A stretch of DNA of 64,000 nucleotides from Paecilomyces variotii. Lineage: Eukaryota. Numbering within the stretch: position 1 is the stretch's first letter; every line of letters begins with the position of its first letter. Below the pieces are notes generated by a model, which worked only from the letters and a program-made list of their open reading frames with translations, was not told the origin of the DNA and made no database searches. The stretch lies in the NCBI GenBank assembly GCA_004022145.1, contig RCNU01000004.1. One strand, written 5' to 3'. The position numbers and the translations under genes are program-made. Below are positions 22,714 to 50,299 of the stretch, one piece after another.

Positions 22714-23609
22714 CGGAGGAGAGTGGTTTAGTCTGTCAGTCGAGCAACGGTTTATTGACAGATAGAGATGGAAAGATCAGTATAACAAGAGGTCGGGTAA
22801 AGAAGGATAAATTTCAACGTGTGGTTACTGTTCCTGATAGAACGAACGCCATGTGACGCGGAGATAAGTCAGGGGATCTTCTCCGGAGAACATGATGCTA
22901 GCCCTACGAGTACCGCTGATTCTTTTCTGTGTGCCAGCTTCTCATTTTTACAGATCATGACTCTCGTGAAGGCGCAGAATATAAATTTCTTCAAGTAGCT
23001 TTGACAGGGATATCACTACCAAATATCCCCGGTCGTTCTTATTCGAGGCGGAAAGGAATAGTTATATATATGGGGCCGGACAGCAGACATCACCAAGCTT
23101 AGTAAGCCTAGCTAGATGCACATGAATCCACAAGCTTACCACGGCATTGAAATGTTGAAGCTTTTCCAGACCCAATTTCTTCACTGTCGCCATCTACCTA
23201 CTCGTACTGTAACTATATCGATTCCATTCCATGGAGCTAACTTAGCTTCTGTGGTCGGGTCTCGGACATAGGTACTGCCGCTTCCGAGGTTAAAGCACAC
23301 AAAATTTCGCCCTCAGAACTTTTCCTACTCTATCGGTCGCACAAAAAGATGGGCAATGATTCCATTGAATTGTGTCGCCACAATATTTTACCTCTCAGCA
23401 CTTGGCAGTGACGATGATGATATGTGTACAATTGACATGATGAGGATGATCAGTTAATACTATTTCTGTCATGACGATCATGACGATGATGATGATGATG
23501 CTAGAGATATTGGATGGCAGCCAGTGCCCAACTGTCCTGTAGGTGAGTTGATTGCTAATTTCCGCCGATTACTTTGCCTTCCACTTGCAGAAGAACAAGT
23601 CTTCTCTCA

Positions 23610-23698
23610 ATGATGATCACCATATTCATAAGCATAGTTCACCTGAGGTCTTCGGATCGCTGAACGACAAACATATACCATCTTTCGCTCCTATCTGA
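23610..23698 (+). ncRNA. snR60: Box C/D snoRNA, snR60/U80 (SNORD80) homolog guiding two LSU rRNA 2'-O-methylations
   Basis: Box C ATGATGA 23610-16, D' CTGA 23643-46, UUCG hairpin GGTC-TTCG-GATC, box D CTGA 23695-98. The D' guide GCATAGTTCAC is complementary to conserved LSU GUGAACUAUGC (+5 rule gives the yeast Am817 equivalent). The D guide TCTTTCGCTCCTAT pairs with AUAGGGGCGAAAGA with one G.U (Gm908 equivalent). This is the snR60 target pair; rRNA sequences are from recall. Confidence 0.88.
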
Positions 23699-26108
23699 AA
23701 ACACCTGTTCCCTTTGCCTGGCAGCCTTTGTTTCTTTTAGCGCGACGTGACGCTGACCACCTGTAGATCCTAGTCTCGATAGTGTCCTTTCCCAGCAGTC
23801 TGCTTCATCTAGCGGCTCTGCGAGGTGCGCAGTGCCGAGTTGGGGACGGCGACTGCATTGCTGCCCGACAGTCCCATGACTTGTCCATCCTGTCCCCTTC
23901 GCGGTCTGAAGGCCCGAAATCAGTCGTAGCCGCCGTCGTTCGCTTATGTTCGACTTGAATAGATAAATCAATTCATCTTCCCGCGCAGTCCCCCTTTTTC
24001 TTTTTGCTCTCATCCCATCTGCCTGTGTCCTCACTCACTCTCTCTTTTGGTCGGAAATTACCGCCCAAGGCTGACGGTTTTCCGTAGAGGGTCCGAGTGG
24101 GACGAGCCAATACCCATATTATTATTCTCGTAACCCGTGTCTCATGCTCTCCCCCCTCCTTCTTTGCCGGTAGGATTGCAATTGCTCTGCAGCAGACACA
24201 CCCGGCAAGTCCATGTATGGTTGGCTCGTATGACTGCCGGAGGGTGTGACTCTGGGCCAGTTGTACAGGCGCAGGACCGCCTCGTAGCACTGTTTTGTGG
24301 CAGGAGAAGGCCTGTGGTCCAATCGTCCGGGCAGAGCGAGGGCGATGATGTACTGACTGGATGCACGAGAGACGCCCGGCCTTGATTTGCAGGGATTTGT
24401 GTGATTTCGCGCTCACCGCTGGCCAGAGGCTGACATCAGGCTGCATACAAATGCCACGTCAAGCCGCGGGCGATTGGCAGACAAGGCGTGATTTCTGCAG
24501 CGGAATCACACCCTGCGCAAGTCCGGTTCACGCCCGGCTCGCACCGTCTCCCGAGGCCCCACGCGGTGATTGCCCGCACCGTAACAGAAGGCCCGCTGCC
24601 CATGCTGGTTAAAGACCCGGCGTCTCCCCCTTTTGCTGCATCCCCCATTCTGCTTCCTCTTTTTCTCATCTCAGACTCTGAATCAGAAACACCACTACTG
24701 ACTATACTACTGCTTCCATCCCATACTTTGAAGAAAAATTCACTCTGAGCTTACCCTCACAACACAAATTCTCCTGCTTCTGCATTAAGGTCTTGTTGTG
24801 CATGCTTCCAGATCTACTACTCCTCACTACTCAACAACAAACCCACCTGCAACCCGTGGATCTGCTACCACCTCCCTGGCTCCACAAAGATCCCATTGGA
24901 ATCCAATCCATTTCCGTTTCCTGGACAGGCCCTGCTTTTGCTGTTCTTTTGAAGGACCCATTCTGAGTTGCCCTTTGAAGGGCTGCATCATTGCTCTCCA
25001 GGCTTAGTTCTGATCAAGTGACAGATAACAACAGGTAGTCCCCTCACATTTTTCTTTGCGTTCTTCCCCTTGCTTTTGTTGCTTTTTGGACCGGGACCTG
25101 TTTCCGTAACCATGTAACCTGGATCATGTGCAAACCGCACAGGAACCTCGGATGATACACTCTCTGGACCTGTTCTCGACTCGTCGCCAGTGCTGCTGGC
25201 ACGGTCATACATGATGATGATGATGAAACCCCAAGGGACTTCTGGACTCCATGACAGCCGTCAGGAGAATATGGATACTCGAGTGCATAATGCTGCAAAC
25301 TCGAAGCTCACTGTTGACACCGTGTGGAACCTTGCCAATGGAATACTCACTCCAAGCCTGGAGTCGGGATCTGGATTTGACTTTTGACTTTTGTATGGAC
25401 CACGAGGACGAACCCAAGGCCCTTAACTCACGTGGACTTCTTTTTTTCTATCTGGACCGGATGACCCTTCCTGTGCTTAAACAACAACAATGGACCAATG
25501 GACCCAATCTTCGGATTACCTGGACTTGCTATTGATTTCGTGTGATGACCTTTGTTTGCTACATTTTTGAACCCCCATGGACTCGGGATCGACTCGTAGC
25601 GATGTTCATTAGGACTGGAACCAGCCTTTTTATGATGACCAGCTATCTTACACTGGACCTCCAAAGCCGCTAGTGATGCGGACAGTTATTTATGACAGCC
25701 TCTACTGGACCAAAGGATTTCTGACACGTTGCTGACAAGTCGCAATGGCTGCATGGCAAAGCTTGCGACGTTGACGAGGCCTTGAGAGGAGTAAAACTAC
25801 GGATCGCCCCGGTGATAGGACATACTGCACTACACCCAACAAAGGACCCCAACTCCATTGGAAGCTATATCTAGGACCCTACAGGAAACTTTGCCACTTG
25901 GCCACCTTGGATGATCATGCATGATGACAATAAACTGGTTGGTAAATGAACTACCGTAAACATGACTTGAGATATAAAACTGACCCGGGGCACAGGACGC
26001 CACGATACTTGGACTCTCTCGGGACTTACTTTTCTTTTACATGCCTTGCACAGCTTCGGGTAACTGACTTGTCTCGTTTTATGTAGTGATTATTTCTGTC
26101 AATTTGGC

Positions 26109-28007
26109 ATGTCATCCACAGGACTCAAGGCCACAATGTCTCCCAGGATCAAGACAGACCCCAACAGGATGATCTCTCAATCTCTTCAAGCACTTCCCCA
26201 GGGTTCCCGACCCATGCATTCCATGCACGGACTGCCGAGCTTGACATCTACAGCCTCCCAGGATGATGATCTTTCAAGCCAGGATAGGTTTTCCTTGTCT
26301 TCACACATGCAGAGCAACCAGACATCCCATGGAATGGAAGGATGGGCTATGACCTCTTCGGGCTCCATTGATTCCACTGATATGACACCAAGCGAGCCTG
26401 AATCCCCGGAAGTCCAGATGTTGTCTTTTTCCTTGTCACAGCAGTTGATGCCTAGCAGCCACGGCGACTCTGCCAACAGTGGTTCCATGTATTCTTCACT
26501 GTCTGATTTCCAGGCTGTCCAGGATGTGACCGACAACGACATGGATTTCACCCAAGCACAGGATTTTCACCAGTTTTCTTCCATGGTGGACTTTTCCTAT
26601 GACCATGACACGTGCACCTCGAGCGGGACTCAGGGATGCACACCAGACGATGCTGCGTCGGTGGGACATGGCTCCCAGAATGATGACACCCAAATGATGG
26701 CTGCCAGCGATGCTTGGAGTTCTTTGGCCATGGAAACTGGAAGCTTTCATGGATCAACCCTGGACCACCTCTCGTCTCATATCTTCCACCCCGTTCCCGT
26801 CTCTCCCCCTTTGACCGAAGCAAGCAATGATATGTCTGTCACGTCGTCTTGTTCCAATTCTGGTTATTCCTTCCATACCCATGAGGATGCGTTCTTTGGA
26901 GACCTTGCGCCCACCACCATTGGGGGTCAGACGATCAACTTGGGCGATCCGCTCTTCCCTTTGACACCACCATTGAGTGAACAGGATCCCAACAGGTTAG
27001 GCTATATAATCCCCTCTTTTGCGGCAGACGGAGTATTGACAGAATATTCGCAGGACAATTAGACCTTCCAAACAGGCGCAGAGGCCACTACTCTCAGCGG
27101 CTACATCCCGCAACCAGAGGAAATCGGACCCTGAGTTTTATTCTTCCTTGTCTGTTAGAGAGCCTCTTCGCCAGCGGTCCAAGGACGGTTCCGAGATCAG
27201 AGCTCCCCGGGATCATCCATACTATTCTCTGCCAACCCAGGCCGATGGAAAGTACTACTGCCCTTTTGCCACTGGAGACAAGCCTTGTAATCACCCTCCT
27301 ACTACTCAGAAATGCGCTTACCAGTAAATAACCCCTTTCCCTTATGACTTCTCATTCTCGGACGCTGACCAAGTCGCAGTAAATATCTGGACTCTCACTT
27401 GAAGCCATACCGTTGCAAGGTTCCTGCCTGCATGGATGCCCAGTTGCAGTTTTCTTCCAATGCGTGTCTTTTCCGTCACGAGAGAGAAGCCCATGGATTG
27501 CACGGCCACGGAGACAACCCCCATTTGTGCCTGTTTGAAGGATGTGACCGATCTGTCCCTGGATACGGCTTCCCCCGCCGTTGGAATCTCTTTGACCACA
27601 TGAAGAGGGTCCACGATTACACTTCATCCGAGCGCCCCAGCTCTCCAGAGACCGCCCCTGGTGTCCTCAATGCGAAGAAGAAGGATACTGTGCGCAAGAG
27701 GAAGGTCACGGGGCCAACTGCAGCCCAGACAATGAAGCGTACCCGCTCTACTCACTCCCAGGCGAACCCCTTGAAGGCTGCCCATGCTACTGCCCACCTC
27801 GGACAGCGGCTGCAGAATGCGGAGAGGAACTACTATAACTGCCGCTCTCGCTTGCTCGAGGAGATTAGTAACATCACCCCTCAGGATCCAGCCATACACG
27901 AAAAGGTCAATGCCAGCCTCCAGGAACTGATCACCTTGGGTCTGAACTACCGTCACATTGAGGCTAGCCAAGCTGCGACCCAGATGAATGGAAGCGCCTC
28001 AACTTGA
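26109..28007 (+). CDS. nsdC: C2H2 zinc-finger transcription factor, NsdC/Cos1-like (~594 aa, 2 coding introns plus an upstream intron ending at 26086)
   Basis: Ser-rich N-terminus; fingers YYCPFATGDKPCNHPPTTQKCAYHKYLDSH, CKVPAC...FSSNACLFRHEREAH and CLFEGC...GFPRRWNLFDHMKRVH; branch site CTGAC and TAG acceptor just upstream of the ATG. The symbol is from recall. Confidence 0.65.
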
Positions 28008-29119
28008 GGACGTTCAGGATGAGGTTCTTGACACTCGAAGACCTCTTTGGATTTTAACCTCGCCCCCAATTGGGAGATTGACCCACCAGATGTTCCAAGC
28101 TCACGATGCCCAGACATGAGCAGAACAGGTGCGCATGCTGAGCCAGTCCTGGAACACGCTCATGATATGACGCTTGCCTACTCTCGGACCATGACTCTGC
28201 CCAGAAGAGCGGTTCTCGAGATAGGCAACACGACATGACAGCTGTTAGTAGGCAGCTTCTCTATACTGTCTGTGAACTTAGAAACCCAGCTCGAGACTGA
28301 CTGCAGTTGAGGAAGGCGCGGGATTTGCTGCACTGGGAATGTTTATATTTTTCCCACAGCAACGAGGATCAGATGACCTGGGGGTACTGTCTTCTTGCTG
28401 GTAGAGAAGACAGCTGCTGCTTTCAGGGAAAAAAAAAAGAAAGAAAAGTGGATATCGAGGGTAGAAGCCTAGACAGGCTTCACACAACGGGGATAGAAGA
28501 AGAGAAAAAAACAGGCGGAAATTTGTGCAAGCCGACCCTCCAAAGGGCGACTAGATCTTTTAGCAGGCGTTCACAGTTGGTTTTAGTGGATTTGTACTTG
28601 GTGAATTTTGCTGATTTTGTCGTTCTACTGTTTCTTATCTTACGCATTTCGTTCAAGGTTCAGTTTATTGGATTACAGGCGATATCTTAGATTACAATGG
28701 TTCGGTACCGATGTGTATAAGGCTGGTCCTCCAGGGAAGGGGGGAAAAGGGCAAAAAAGCTCCGCAAAGTGAGCGTCTCGGATTAAAGAGGGTTTATGCG
28801 CTCGGGCGGTATTCTTTTCATAAAAAGGATTAGTTATATATGGTTTCAAGGTGTTCAAATTGATACTGTTACATTCATCTCTATATATTCTCGCAAATAT
28901 CTCGTGAACACTTAATTGGTGAGCATGTAGCACTCTTGGTTATAAGATAAAGCGAGGGATAGTTAGTAATGCTTTTAACTAACTGGTAGTCAAATGGAGT
29001 ACGTTATACTTTTTATCTCATGTCGCGTCGTATCACGTCAAGAAAGCCTCACTTCAAACTTGCAGATTGGCCAGCGCCCAGTCGGGGGTCATCTTATGGC
29101 ATAATATGCCGAATATTGC

Positions 29120-31175: not shown

Positions 31176-32120
31176 TTATAGTTGGTCTTCGGCCCATCTG
31201 ATTTCATATCCGAAAACAGTCCGTCTCAGCTTCTCATCCTGTGACATTGTTAGCATGCAATTGATATTCCTCTCTGCACGACTTGGCAAACATACACCTG
31301 GGTCATTCTCAAACAAGACTTTGTCCATCAATTTCTCAAATATCTTTGTGACCGTAAAGCCGTTCTCCTCTGCCAGCGGGAAGAATTTCTCCGTCTTTGG
31401 AAGCAGCCATGGCTGATAAGGCGTGAAGATCACCAGTGCCACCGCCTCTTTCGTCTTCTTCAGCGTCTGCTGCATGGTCTTGACGAGATTGGGATGCTCC
31501 CGATGGCTGTACACCACATCCGCCATGATGAGCACATCGAAGGCCTTCGAACCCTCTGGCAGGTATGAAAGCAGTTCATCAACAGGGTTGCCCCATTTGT
31601 ATCCGGTGACGTGCAGGGAGGATTGGCTTGGTATGAGCGACGCGGAGGACGAAGCATTCTGGCGCATGTTATCGACGAGGTCTGGGTCCGGATAGTCCGT
31701 CATGACTACAGTGCGCGCGCCTTTGATGGCGCAGACGATACTGGGTACACCTGCAGCGGCTCCGATCTCCAGCACATCCTTGCCCTCGATCAGTTCGTTG
31801 GCTCTCTCTTCTAGATAGTCTGCGCTGGTCCGGCCCGCGTTCCATAGCAGATCCCCCTCCAAGGCTGTCAGTTCGAAAATCACATAACAATAGACAATTG
31901 CTACTACAGGGAGTGCGAGGAAACAGTCAAAAGGTCATTCGATTCGTACGTATAATGGATGGCTGCCGACCAGGCGCACACGCACGGTCTGGCCGGAGAG
32001 CATTTTGTGCTCAGCATAAGTGGGCTCCTTCTCGGGCGGGTAGAAGCCCTCTGGGACGTCGAAGAGGCCGCCAGCATCGAGGCCATCCTGGAGTGCATCG
32101 TCCTCCCTGTCTGAGGCCAT
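31176..32120 (-). CDS. efm7: Protein N-terminal/lysine methyltransferase Efm7/Nnt1 (2 introns)
   Basis: RLVGSHPLY-GDLLWNAG, VLEIGAAAGVPS, VVMTDYPD, LIMADVVYSH, FENDPG-DEKLRRTVFGY. Confidence 0.9.
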
Positions 32121-46798: not shown

Positions 46799-47940
46799 TT
46801 CTTGGACGCGTCCAATCTCTCCTTTTTCTGGTCCAATTGGTTGGCACTAGACGACTGCTTTGCTTTTTTTATATCCTTTTATCCGTCCGTCGGGTTTGGA
46901 GCAGTCTTATTTTTCAGGCCCCAGTGCTTGCTTTAAGACAAGGGAACCCCAGCCTTGTTCTTTTTTTTATTCCTTTTTTTGACTCGATCTCCTAGCGAGC
47001 GAATATGTCTAGGCTCCTATATTTTTTTGCTTCTACGCTATATTCTCTAGATACATACCTGTTAGCTCTGCGCAGTGAGCAAACGAACAAAAAAGACTTG
47101 GATGATTTCTACATTGGGCGTCGCGTGTTCCCTTTCGCGCCTTTTTTTATTTTGGCCCTACTTACGGAGACCTAATAACTATACCTAGGTAGCGTCCCTC
47201 GTGGCTACTAATGCAAATTACCCCGCGTGTTCGCGCTTAGGTACTTATGTCCTTTCTAGACTGTCCTATAATCAAGTATGGTCAACCAAGACTTGCAGCA
47301 GGAGCACGTGCCATACGTGCCCTATCTGCTGCGGAAGCAAGACAGGAATAAAACATAAGATTACTTTATTATCTTGATGGCATCGCCTTAGCTAATTCAT
47401 ATATATATACACATTACAAAAAGACCACCGAAGAGGTATACCTACGGCTGAGAGACTACGCAAGCAAGATTTTGACTCGAGATTTTTGCCAAAGCTGAGG
47501 TAGTAGAACATATATAGATATATATATATCAGTCCCGAAAAATGATAGCTATCGAACAAGAAAAGAAAAAAGCCAAACATCCATGAACGCAAGCCGTAAC
47601 CTTCGTAGAGTTCCCTCTCGGTTTATTAGAGACCGATTGCAACCACACAACACAACAATTATGAGGTAGACTGACTCCCTGTCCCCCCTACCCTGCTTTT
47701 TCCTCATGTAATACCATACTCGAGGAACTGACAGGAAGAGTTGTCGTGTTTCCCATAACATCATATAGCAGAGCTCTGATTATAGAATTCATAACATAGA
47801 CGCCGGTACAGAAGCCAGGCTGCCTCGGTATCCTTTCATAATGTAATATATGCAGAACCACAATTAATCAATTACCTTTGCGCTCAGGAAAAAAAATCTC
47901 AAGGTTGATAAGCTCAAGGCGCTATTTTTTTTTTTTTTTT

Positions 47941-50299
47941 TCATTCCTTCACGTGAGCGGAAACAACGCTGTGCTTGCGCAATTCCTGGTTCGTCTCGTC
48001 GGTAGCGACGTGATCAAACTTGTAGAGAGGCTCGAGATGCACGTTCCGGCGGAAAATGTAGCGGTTAATCCACCACGGGAGGACCTCGAAGACCTGGTAG
48101 TGGATGTGCTTTTTGGTGGGAACAGCAAAGATGTAATCGAGTTCTTCTAGAGTACGCTGCTTGGTTTCTGGGACGAATAGATAGATCATAACTAGAGCAA
48201 CCACGTTGAGGCCGCTGGGAATGAAGGTCAGTATGTTAAGGATAGATAAATAAATGAAATAAGGAATTGTGAGTGTGAACTTACGCATAGAAACAGAAAG
48301 CGCCAGTTGGAGTCATGACAGCAAGCATTCGTGGGAAAGTGATCGAAAGCACAGCAGCCCAACCGAGACAGGTAGCCACAGCCCAGGACATGCCAACCTC
48401 TGAAAATAAGGTAATTAATATTAGCTAAATGAAAACGAGAGTCCTCGAGGTGGAGCAGAACTTACCACGATGGGACAATGGGAATACTTCTGCAGAGTAA
48501 GTGAACGGAACAGGTCCTTCACCGGGTGAGTAGAAAGCTGCGAAGAGGAAGACGAAGAGGGCAATGACACCCAAGTGAGCCTTCGAATCTGATGGGATGT
48601 AGAAGCTGAATGCGGCAGCAAGAAGCGTCCATGCCATCTGTGGGAAGGTGAAAAGCAGCAGCGATCGTCGGCCATAGGTATCGATGGTCCACACAGCGGG
48701 GAAAGCGAACAGGAAGTTCACCAGACCAAAGCCCCAAGAGGCAAGCAGCGCACCGGTAGTAGTAGCACCAGCTTGCTGGAAGACGGTTGAGGAGTAAAAT
48801 GCCACAATGTTGATACCGCACATCTGCTGCGCAATCATGACAGTAAACGAGGCCAGAGTTGCACGTCGAACACGAGGAATCGTAAACAGCTCCACGAAAC
48901 GAGTAAGGTAGTTGCTATGCCCTGAAATCTCCTGCTCCACTTTGATCTGAGCGTGGATGTAGTACAGATCACGGGCAGCCTGGAGCTCAGTGTTTCGTAG
49001 ACGACAGAGTGACTTATATGCCTTGGCCATCATACCCTTCTTAATGTACCAACGCGGAGATTCCGGACAGAAGTAAATACCAAATAGAAGGGGAAGCGCA
49101 GGAATGAAGGCAGAGCCCAGTTGAAGACGCCATGAAATAGCACCAGTATCCTTGACAGCAAGGTTGGCACAGAAACCAAGGAAAATACCGAACGCGGTCC
49201 ACCTGCAGGAGTAGGTTAGTAACAGTGAAATGCATGTACAAACTGAGAAAGAATAAAAAAATGAATAAGGGTCTCTTACAGCTGCCAGCTCATAACTAAT
49301 CCACCACGAATGGCGGCAGGTGTGTTTTCTGCACAGAAAATGGGGATGGTCGAAGCCTTCATACCCATACCTAGACCGAGCAGCAGTCGGGTCACAAACA
49401 ACTGAGGCCATGTCTGGGTGAAGGCGGATCCAATAGGAGAGATGACGCAGAAAATAGCAGATCCGAAGATGCAACCACGACGGCCGAACCAGTTGTTTAG
49501 TGGATCGGATAGCCAGCAACCCAAGAGAGCCGTTGAGATATAGGGAGCACTATGAAGAGAGTTAGTCTCTGGGCGCAAGGACTCAATGTATTAGCACTGA
49601 CGCATTTACAACACCGACAATCCACTGATTACGCTCCGCATTGGGGCCGTGGCTATCAGGGATCCCGAAAGCATCTGGGAACGAAAGATTGGCACCGTTT
49701 GATCCAGTTTGGTCCCATCCCCTGGGCAATGTTAAGTATGCGATTAGATTAATATTGCAGGTTTCTCATCACTTACTGCACAGCAGCACCAATGGAACAG
49801 AGAATAATAGTAAAGTATAGCGCTTTAGGCTGTCTCCACTTATGGAGGACCTCATCACGGATGGCAGTGGTCTCAGTCTCAGTCAGTCCCTCCACTGATT
49901 CGAAAGCAGCCGGGTCTCTGGCGACGAGAGCACCCTTCTGCAGGAGTGGTCTGATGTGATCTAGTTGGTACTCGGTGGCGAACTCATCAACATCCTTGAG
50001 GACCTGTTTCTTCGAGAGATCTGCCAAAGGGTTCTTGATTCTAGAGGAGGATTAGTGAACTTTTCATAGTATACCATAGCAAATGAACTTACTTCGCTGA
50101 AACATTCTTGTTCAGGTTGATCTTCTCGAGATGAGCAAGTTCCACGTCATGATCAGAGCTCTCGCTGTGGGATGTTAGCCTGTCATTGGATATCAATTGG
50201 AAATAATTGCTCTTGGACTGACCTATCGAGACCCTTTGACGAAGGAAATACGCCGTTGTCAACCTGAGTGACTTCGTCCTTCTCCACGATTTCCGCCAT
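47941..50299 (-). CDS. MFS sugar porter (polyol/myo-inositol transporter-like, multi-intron)
   Basis: LHKWRQP...[82 protein letters not shown]. Confidence 0.93.

Follow-up and report, generated by a model that had tools for sequence, protein, structure and literature searches.

A conserved sense-strand array of WGGAY words in the leader of the Paecilomyces variotii vidA orthologue and its possible role at the RNA level

A GGAC array in the leader of a vidA orthologue

The DNA analysed here (the window) is a stretch of 64,000 nucleotides (nt) from Paecilomyces variotii contig RCNU01000004.1 (assembly GCA_004022145.1), and all positions are counted from its first letter. Its + strand carries an orthologue of vidA, a gene for a C2H2 transcription factor with a coding sequence (CDS) at 26109..28007, which is preceded by a transcribed leader containing a long intron. 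Within this leader lies an array of 25 dispersed copies of the word GGAC (24923..26025, + strand; consensus C-W-GGAC-Y), itself part of a wider array of the word WGGAY at 24857-26014. Counting by eye, the initial annotation had given about 25 GGAC and about 1 GTCC for the + strand of 24920-26030, with roughly 4-5 expected by chance. The exact counts are 25 and 1, the first and last copies starting at 24923 and 26022 and the lone GTCC lying at 25038, and the remainder of the window predicts 4.46 GGAC per 1201 nt (Poisson P 1.6e-11). The longer forms TGGAC (14 against 1.35 expected), GGACC (12 against 1.11) and TGGACC (8 against 0.36) are likewise in excess, each with a reverse complement count of 0. 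The two-strand total of GGAC in the whole window is 494, which equals the expectation from shuffled sequence (490.7 +/- 18.7), and the excess is therefore local; the + strand totals for the window are 259 GGAC and 235 GTCC. In a look-elsewhere scan of all 256 four-letter words, on both strands and in each 1100-nt segment at 50-nt steps, GGAC at this locus ranks second (24 in the best segment, P 8.4e-11), only a T-run at 46851 being higher. The array is the strongest word cluster of the window outside low-complexity sequence. The top cluster, at about 46851-47950, has 44 TTTT in 1100 nt against 6.7 expected.

The copies are scattered and their flanks are unlike, in agreement with the earlier description of them as dispersed rather than tandem. 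They are preceded by T (14 copies), A (7), G (3) or C (1) and followed by C (12), T (8), A (3) or G (2). Further upstream, at positions -2 to -4 of GGAC, C reaches 36-60% at this locus and in its close relatives, with no C preference at +6. The related word GGAT occurs 11 times in this leader and never on the antisense strand. Taken together as WGGAY, the words number 26 sense and 0 antisense in the 1200 nt upstream of the ATG, where 5.5 are expected (P 2.6e-10), and the complement, RTCC, is almost missing from the array strand (1 against about 10 expected). None of the 24 substitutions and indels listed among strains inside the intron breaks a GGAC core, a result that carries no weight as about 2 would be expected to do so by chance.

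A minus-strand GGAC cluster (10 in 600 nt) at 23751-24350, the second-best on that strand, adjoins the leader upstream and points away from it. The RNA contig X7 record 19 (23772-24270) covers it, and one relative, L033, has a comparable upstream minus-strand GGAC cluster; the pattern is inconsistent among relatives, and an excess of GTCC upstream of the leader is not consistent in them.

The initial annotation had called the gene NsdC-like. Translations of its open reading frames are 100% identical over 212 amino acids to a P. variotii protein, with a few residue differences in the N-terminal part of that protein; judging by these sequences, the window and the protein probably come from different strains. 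The 90% cluster of a close Aspergillus relative includes A. nidulans AN2498 (AFU orthologue AFUA_3G14090). AN2498 is VidA, described in the available parts of two papers as a C2H2 factor that is repressed by VosA/VelB and required for balanced asexual and sexual development (PMC9776899, PMC10253035), and NsdC is AN4263 / Afu7g03910 (PMC8545099). Because the relatives' cluster holds AN2498 and not AN4263, the gene is the VidA orthologue and not NsdC. An NsdC orthologue is ruled out, the group of AN4263 / Afu7g03910 not being matched.

Assembled RNA contigs of four runs (X2, X3, X7 and X11) were aligned to 23500-28700. They show that the region is transcribed, as an RNA-level signal presupposes, and they place 23 of the 25 GGAC copies in a leader intron and the other 2 (24923, 24954) in exon 1. 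One contig of X7, which matches the window at 100% identity, lacks the intron and joins 25032 to 26085; moving the cut by +2 gives GT..AG ends and a joint of 25034 to 26087, so that the acceptor proposed at 26064-26086 is real. The intron is retained in X3 record 15, which runs unbroken through 25445-26992 and then has the next intron, a 58-nt coding one, spliced out, and which is therefore RNA and not DNA. A further contig, X7 record 20 (24510-25528), runs across the leader 5' splice site. Contig depth varies along the leader and was left unused, since it gives no ranking of segments within one gene. The gap in X11 at 25588-25935, which no contig bridges, was not counted as evidence, and the 10.6-kb contig of X2, which includes introns as well as spacers, may be DNA.

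Exon 1 (24510..25034, + strand) begins with the start of X7 record 20, an approximate 5' end as other contigs reach 24252. It has 2 ATG in 525 nt and contains blocks that are conserved in alignment A2 (CCGTGGATCT, CCCTGGCT and TCCTGGACAGG). It also contains two CCNTGG boxes, CCGTGG at 24854-24859 and CCCTGG at 24874-24879, which are conserved in all five Eurotiales-like loci (the window, L001, L002, L009 and L010). Both match CCXTGG, the published VelB response element (velvet elements being CCXTGG / CCXXGG; PMC7885118), which is notable as vidA is described as velvet-repressed.

The leader intron (25035..26086, + strand, GT..AG) is 1052 nt long and holds 23 GGAC and 1 GTCC, 24 WGGAY and 0 antisense, and 34 GGAY and 1 antisense. 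At about 1 kb it has some ten times the usual length of a fungal intron. It carries 33 upstream ATGs where about 19 would be expected. Its 5' splice site, GTAGTCCC (25035..25042), holds the region's only GTCC, and the surrounding CAG/GTAGTyCCC (the slash marking the joint) is invariant in the five Eurotiales-like loci. At the other end a branch-site-like GTAACTGACTT and the acceptor TAG (26060..26086) agree with the contig joint, and the pattern rACTrACT...yAG/TG is kept in the same five loci. Across these the intron measures 959-1133 nt, with ATG at 21-33 inside against 0-4 in exon 1, and it has 9-23 GGAC against 1-4 GTCC. In L001, which is from another species and colinear with its protein, both CDS introns are missing but the whole leader intron is there; by its sequence L001 would be either a cDNA retaining the leader intron or a species that lost both coding introns. 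Within the fast-changing intron, the block TGCwTAATGyTGCAmACT (25284..25304, + strand) forms near-invariant columns in A2, and it was found by pattern in the window, L001 (~616), L002 (~5232; the same as L004 and L005), L009 (~5014) and L010 (~5271). By eye this block seemed to have the complementary arms of a hairpin, with one C-G to U-A change in L009/L010. The hairpin was rejected, RNAalifold giving 3 invariant pairs, no covariation and an unaligned 5' arm. Other words in sense-strand excess in the intron are TGATGA (7 against 0.67), GATGA (10 against 2.0) and TGAC (16 against 4.9); the TGAC excess is local, 3.5x here against 1.1x in relatives. An (ATG)5 run at 25211-25225 differs by one unit among strains.

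The CDS (26109..28007, + strand), as given by its reading frames, is interrupted by introns at 26996-27053 and 27324-27379, whose joints appear in the RNA contigs as 26992 to 27051 (+3) and 27323 to 27380. The public P. variotii protein model (P0001) begins with about 30 residues (MHDDNKLDATILG...) taken from inside the leader intron by predicted splices (25918-26123). A start at 26109 fits better than this N-terminus, which neither the RNA contigs nor the N-termini of orthologues support. The 3' untranslated region (UTR) extends over 28008..28697 (+ strand), with a poly(A) loose end behind 28697 in X11. Further upstream another + strand transcript ends at 23701, as shown by poly(A) loose ends in X3 and X11, and the leader starts about 800 nt after it.

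Conservation of the array and of its word

A scan of metagenome contigs gave 80 loci, in which start codons were placed by tblastn (the start and stop codons of distant loci are tblastn estimates), and 23 non-redundant loci with upstream sequence were kept by hand. Those dropped were duplicates or near-duplicates (L004 and L005, equal to L002; L029, L032 and L040, close to L027; L042-L050 and L052, close to L041; L016 and L046, close to L014; L034; L053; L023) or lacked most or all of the upstream sequence or had an N-terminus that was not placed (L003, L006-L008, L011, L012, L017, L019, L021, L025, L028, L030, L036-L039, L054, L057-L060, L062, L064-L079). In the 1200 nt upstream of the ATG these 23 loci have 212 GGAC against 79 GTCC, and 22 of the 23 are biased in this direction, so that the bias seen in P. 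variotii recurs upstream of orthologues. The next 1200 nt upstream (75 against 80) and the 1200 nt following those (49 against 40) served as controls; the corresponding counts are 231 against 133 in the CDS and 62 against 45 in the downstream flank. The leaders are T/C-rich and a mononucleotide model gives 76 GGAC against 118 GTCC, and composition therefore predicts a bias opposite to that seen. The array is common to Eurotiales-like and Onygenales-like loci and to loci whose nearest named proteins belong to lichen-forming fungi and to one Dothideomycete. Most GGAC copies are not conserved in position; what persists, across 8 clade groups and at two separate places in the gene, is their density.

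To judge specificity, both strands of 277.7 kb from 21 non-redundant loci were scanned. Among the 11 segments of 1 kb with the strongest GGAC skew, 8 are the leader of the vidA orthologue. Among the 30 segments of 500 nt with the strongest WGGAY skew, 24 lie on the sense strand of that gene (13 leader, 7 3' UTR, 4 CDS), and of the other 6, three fall at the gene match by our own reading, in loci without a mapped ATG, and three elsewhere. The array is not a general property of neighbouring genes. A minus-strand GGAC cluster in L002 (11401-12400, 16 against 2) lies inside a methyltransferase-like CDS, which the window has as well (31176-31934), and its cause is probably coding.

The conserved word is broader than GGAC. 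Over-representation was judged with an order-1 Markov model, as a maximum-order test is uninformative when the sub-words are themselves enriched. The most over-represented words in the 23 leaders are TGGA, AGGA, GGAT, GGAC and CTGG, with CTGGA at 130 against 37 expected. GGAC is the only clearly enriched word of the form NNAC, at 2.79x in relatives and 6.8x here; the other cores in relatives stand at 0.92x (AGAC), 1.03x (GAAC), 0.75x (AAAC), 1.12x (TGAC) and 0.60x (TAAC), and AGAC occurs 0 times in this region against 3.9 expected. GGAT is about as enriched as GGAC in the relatives' leaders (sense/antisense 176/93 and 159/70 in the 19 distant ones) and more so in their 3' UTRs (138/38 and 84/27). 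Because the enrichment extends to GGAT in equal measure but not to AGAC, GAAC or AAAC, the word that is conserved is WGGAY and not DRACH, the consensus for N6-methyladenosine (m6A). GGAC is the local, C-biased form of this word (UGGAC, UGGAU, AGGAC, AGGAU), P. variotii preferring the C form. Upstream of the ATG, WGGAY counts are 71 against 16 in four close relatives and 261 against 95 in the 19 distant loci, with 145 against 138 in the upstream controls.

In a profile around the gene, a second sense-only WGGAY peak lies directly after the stop codon. The relatives' 3' UTRs have 168 WGGAY against 27 antisense between +1 and +500 from the stop, peaking at +100 to +300, and a separate word search of these 3' UTRs puts GGAT, TGGA and AGGA on top (TGGAT 61 against 6; AGGAC 31 against 3). 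Sense exceeds antisense in 23/23 leaders, 21/22 3' UTRs and 8/8 clade groups. In L022, L033, L035, L055 and L056, within the first ~400 nt past the stop, the alignable blocks ATGAAGC..GTAGACTC..AAGGTTTGT..CTCATTGCAA enclose very dense words of the CCGGA-WGGAT type, WGGAY reaching 9 copies in a stretch of about 125 nt.

The sites are predicted to be open, with an unpaired fraction of 0.41 against 0.03-0.35 for words of the same composition (GACG, at 0.47, is the exception). A comparison with sites for SR (serine/arginine-rich) proteins, a GGA core in single-stranded RNA with cytosines close by, gives a mixed picture: the core is there and the sites are predicted to be unpaired, while C is enriched at -2 to -4 but not at +6. 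Searches for known RNA elements were negative. Hairpins of the Vts1/Smaug type (CNGG, 4-7-nt loop, stem of at least 4 bp) number 3 against 1.42 +/- 1.12 in 200 shuffles, none of them at a GGAC copy. Between 24000 and 26400 the sole Rfam match up to E 5 is a chance-level bacterial small RNA (14.2 bits against a gathering threshold of 44). Clustered U(U/C)AAAC of the Mmi1 type was not found, the enriched words being WGGAY, with AAAC at 0.75x in the relatives' leaders.

A possible platform on the RNA and its alternatives

We consider the chances about even that the array is a multivalent protein-binding platform on the RNA, tied to the processing of the conserved leader intron rich in upstream ATGs. 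It would act as RNA and not as DNA because it is strand-biased, restricted to the transcribed unit and present at both untranslated ends, and because the complementary word is missing from the same strand. A sequence-specific single-strand RNA-binding protein would land on the WGGAY copies and, in the leader, could decide the fate of the intron by shifting the balance between splicing and retention. With the intron removed, the short leader is nearly free of upstream ATGs and would be translatable; with the intron kept, 33 upstream ATGs would precede the start and little VidA-type protein may be made. The occupancy of the platform would then set the share of translatable mRNA, and hence the output of the regulator after transcription, and through the copies in the 3' UTR that factor would also engage the mature mRNA. 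As for the identity of the putative binder, our most concrete guess, by analogy, is an SR-type protein with a GGA-reading pseudo-RRM: in the available part of PMC7813835 the pseudo-RRM of SRSF1 reads GGA, RNAs containing UGGAU are bound at about 55 nM and an AGGAC consensus from SELEX (systematic evolution of ligands by exponential enrichment) is cited.

The array could instead work as DNA: within an intronic enhancer or silencer, its copies would be bound by a transcription factor, whether VidA itself, velvet proteins or some other. Asymmetric G-rich sites are known for C2H2 factors, vidA is described as VosA/VelB-repressed, and the two conserved boxes of exon 1 match the VelB element. Double-stranded sites, however, work in both orientations, and here the strand bias is near-total (26:0, and 168:27 in the relatives' 3' UTRs); the enrichment is limited to the transcribed unit, at both ends, and most GGAC copies fit neither CCXTGG nor CCXXGG, which leaves only the two exon 1 boxes. 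We regard a DNA-level element as unlikely. That the array has no function at all, being a by-product of composition or of transcription-linked mutation or a few conserved blocks counted repeatedly, seems to us very unlikely. The leaders do have general strand skews (TTTT 272 against AAAA 51, CCC 400 against GGG 117), and some GGAC copies lie inside conserved blocks such as TCCTGGACAGG and CGGACCTGTACC, but WGGAY is a purine-rich word on a pyrimidine-rich strand, where composition predicts the opposite bias. Its positions are mostly unconserved and yet its density is kept in 8 clade groups and two regions, and within the 277.7 kb it is restricted to the vidA orthologue.

Two alternatives also place the signal in the RNA. 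The initial annotation had proposed a multivalent platform for m6A or an RNA-binding protein; in its m6A form the GGAC adenosines would be methylated and a YTH-type reader would control splicing, stability or translation. The multivalent RNA-level part of that proposal agrees with the array, its strand bias, the transcribed leader and the sense-strand conservation; the methylation part, with its Ime4-type writer, is poorly supported and in our view quite improbable. In its favour, 23 of the 25 copies fit GGACH, the strongest form of DRACH, and the second array of the relatives sits right after the stop codon, a region typical for m6A. Available parts of two papers report DRACH/RRACH peaks, partly dependent on MTA1, from m6A-seq in Cryphonectria, a member of Pezizomycotina (PMC11361730), and the presence of YTH proteins in Pezizomycotina (PMC10826363). 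The conserved word, however, includes GGAU, which is not DRACH and is as enriched as GGAC, and the other DRAC cores (AGAC, GAAC, AAAC, TAAC) are unenriched. IME4/METTL3, KAR4 and WTAP are reported absent from Pezizomycotina, only the METTL4-like MTA1 being kept, in the same partly available source (PMC10826363). We think it just as improbable that UGGA/GUAG and CUUG words stop the polymerase in the leader, in the manner of Nrd1-Nab3, and yield a short non-coding RNA. Excerpts of PMC10317158 and PMC4081072 give UGGA as a weak Nrd1 target (dissociation constant about 94 uM), and TGGA and GTAG are over-represented in the 23 leaders, as is CTTGC (58 against 7). A weak hint is that contigs of three studies end at 25474-25528 without a listed loose end (X3 record 14, X11 record 3, X7 record 20), but these ends coincide with strain variants at 25451 and 25465 that are able to break assemblies. 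Attenuation explains neither the C/T that belongs to the word after GGA nor the same array in the 3' UTRs, and the fission yeast Nrd1 homologue is, in the part of PMC4949328 available, not active in termination of the Nrd1-Nab3-Sen1 type.

Several points weigh against a protein-binding platform on the RNA. With 5 nt and 4 variants the word is short, and the sequence around it adds little information. The 23 loci were hand-picked and some are kin (L024/L026, and seven P0118-like loci with alignable 3' UTRs), so that the counts overstate the number of independent events, and the specificity is that within 277.7 kb of the relatives' loci. The RNA evidence consists of assembled contigs, which give neither strand nor abundance nor developmental stage, and the spliced form of the leader is one contig whose shorter side is 28 letters. 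In this species the 3' UTR array is weak, with 6 against 1 in 28008-28697 where 3.2 are expected. The yeast protein Npl3, which is SR-like and has a pseudo-RRM, recognizes GNGG and not GGA according to a partly available source, and the link to SR proteins is thus not general.

The platform on the RNA would matter because of the gene that carries it. According to PMC9776899 and PMC10253035, factors of the VidA type in Aspergillus keep asexual development, sexual development and the maturation of spores in balance. Control of VidA has so far been described at the transcription level only, via velvet proteins, and the conserved, partly retained intron full of upstream ATGs, together with the shared word array, points to a layer of control at the RNA level. 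Two tempting labels are also corrected, the gene not being NsdC and the motif most probably not being a cluster of m6A sites. A literature search that did not cover the original vidA (2019) and nsdC (PMC2710158) papers found no such array described, and the available part of a study of Histoplasma leaders (PMC4503680) contains no matching motif. More tentatively, and by analogy, we speculate that this is an undescribed, deeply conserved switch of Pezizomycotina, in which a dedicated protein might read WGGAY clouds at both ends of the vidA mRNA and, in the manner of Mmi1, hold the RNA unspliced, untranslatable or short-lived until a developmental cue; a wider regulon would then exist, of which this array is the first cis-element. 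This larger picture is possible but rather doubtful.

Comparison with known systems

Among Aspergillus developmental factors, brlA and stuA have long leaders, leader introns and upstream ATGs that gate translation. The vidA orthologue resembles them in its long leader, its leader intron and its upstream ATGs, which would gate translation here too, and in having alternative transcripts, as noted for brlA and stuA (PMC3596290). It differs in its repeated sense-strand word array, which is not described for brlA or stuA in the literature searched. Bacterial CsrB/RsmZ RNAs present many GGA motifs in hairpin loops and so bind CsrA. The likeness is that of a GGA-studded RNA binding many copies of one protein, as proposed here; these RNAs are bacterial with motifs in loops, whereas the words of the vidA leader are predicted to be open and linear, and there is no homology. 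Clusters of DRACH sites that serve YTH or IGF2BP readers (UGGAC consensus, from a partly available source) share the GGAC core, often as UGGAC, and the location in UTRs, but in the vidA array GGAU is equally kept and other DRAC cores are not, and a METTL3-type writer is reported absent from Pezizomycotina in a source available in part.

The GGA sites of SRSF1 come closer in the word itself. They share with the array a GGA core, a C-rich upstream flank and a place in an alternatively processed intron; UGGAU and AGGAC are documented ligands, and affinity rises with the number of GGA copies (PMC7813835). SRSF1 is a human protein, its preference for C at +6 is not seen here, and SR sites are not classically arrayed in 3' UTRs. 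In fission yeast, Mmi1 recognizes the determinant of selective removal, clustered copies of U(U/C)AAAC on the sense strand of the transcripts of meiotic regulators, including their introns and UTRs, and decides between processing and discard. The word there is different from WGGAY, and the link to the exosome and selective removal belong to that system, whereas here there is the word array alone; the vidA leader resembles it in that a short word recurs many times, in sense orientation, in the RNA of a developmental regulator, where the copies would form a multivalent platform.

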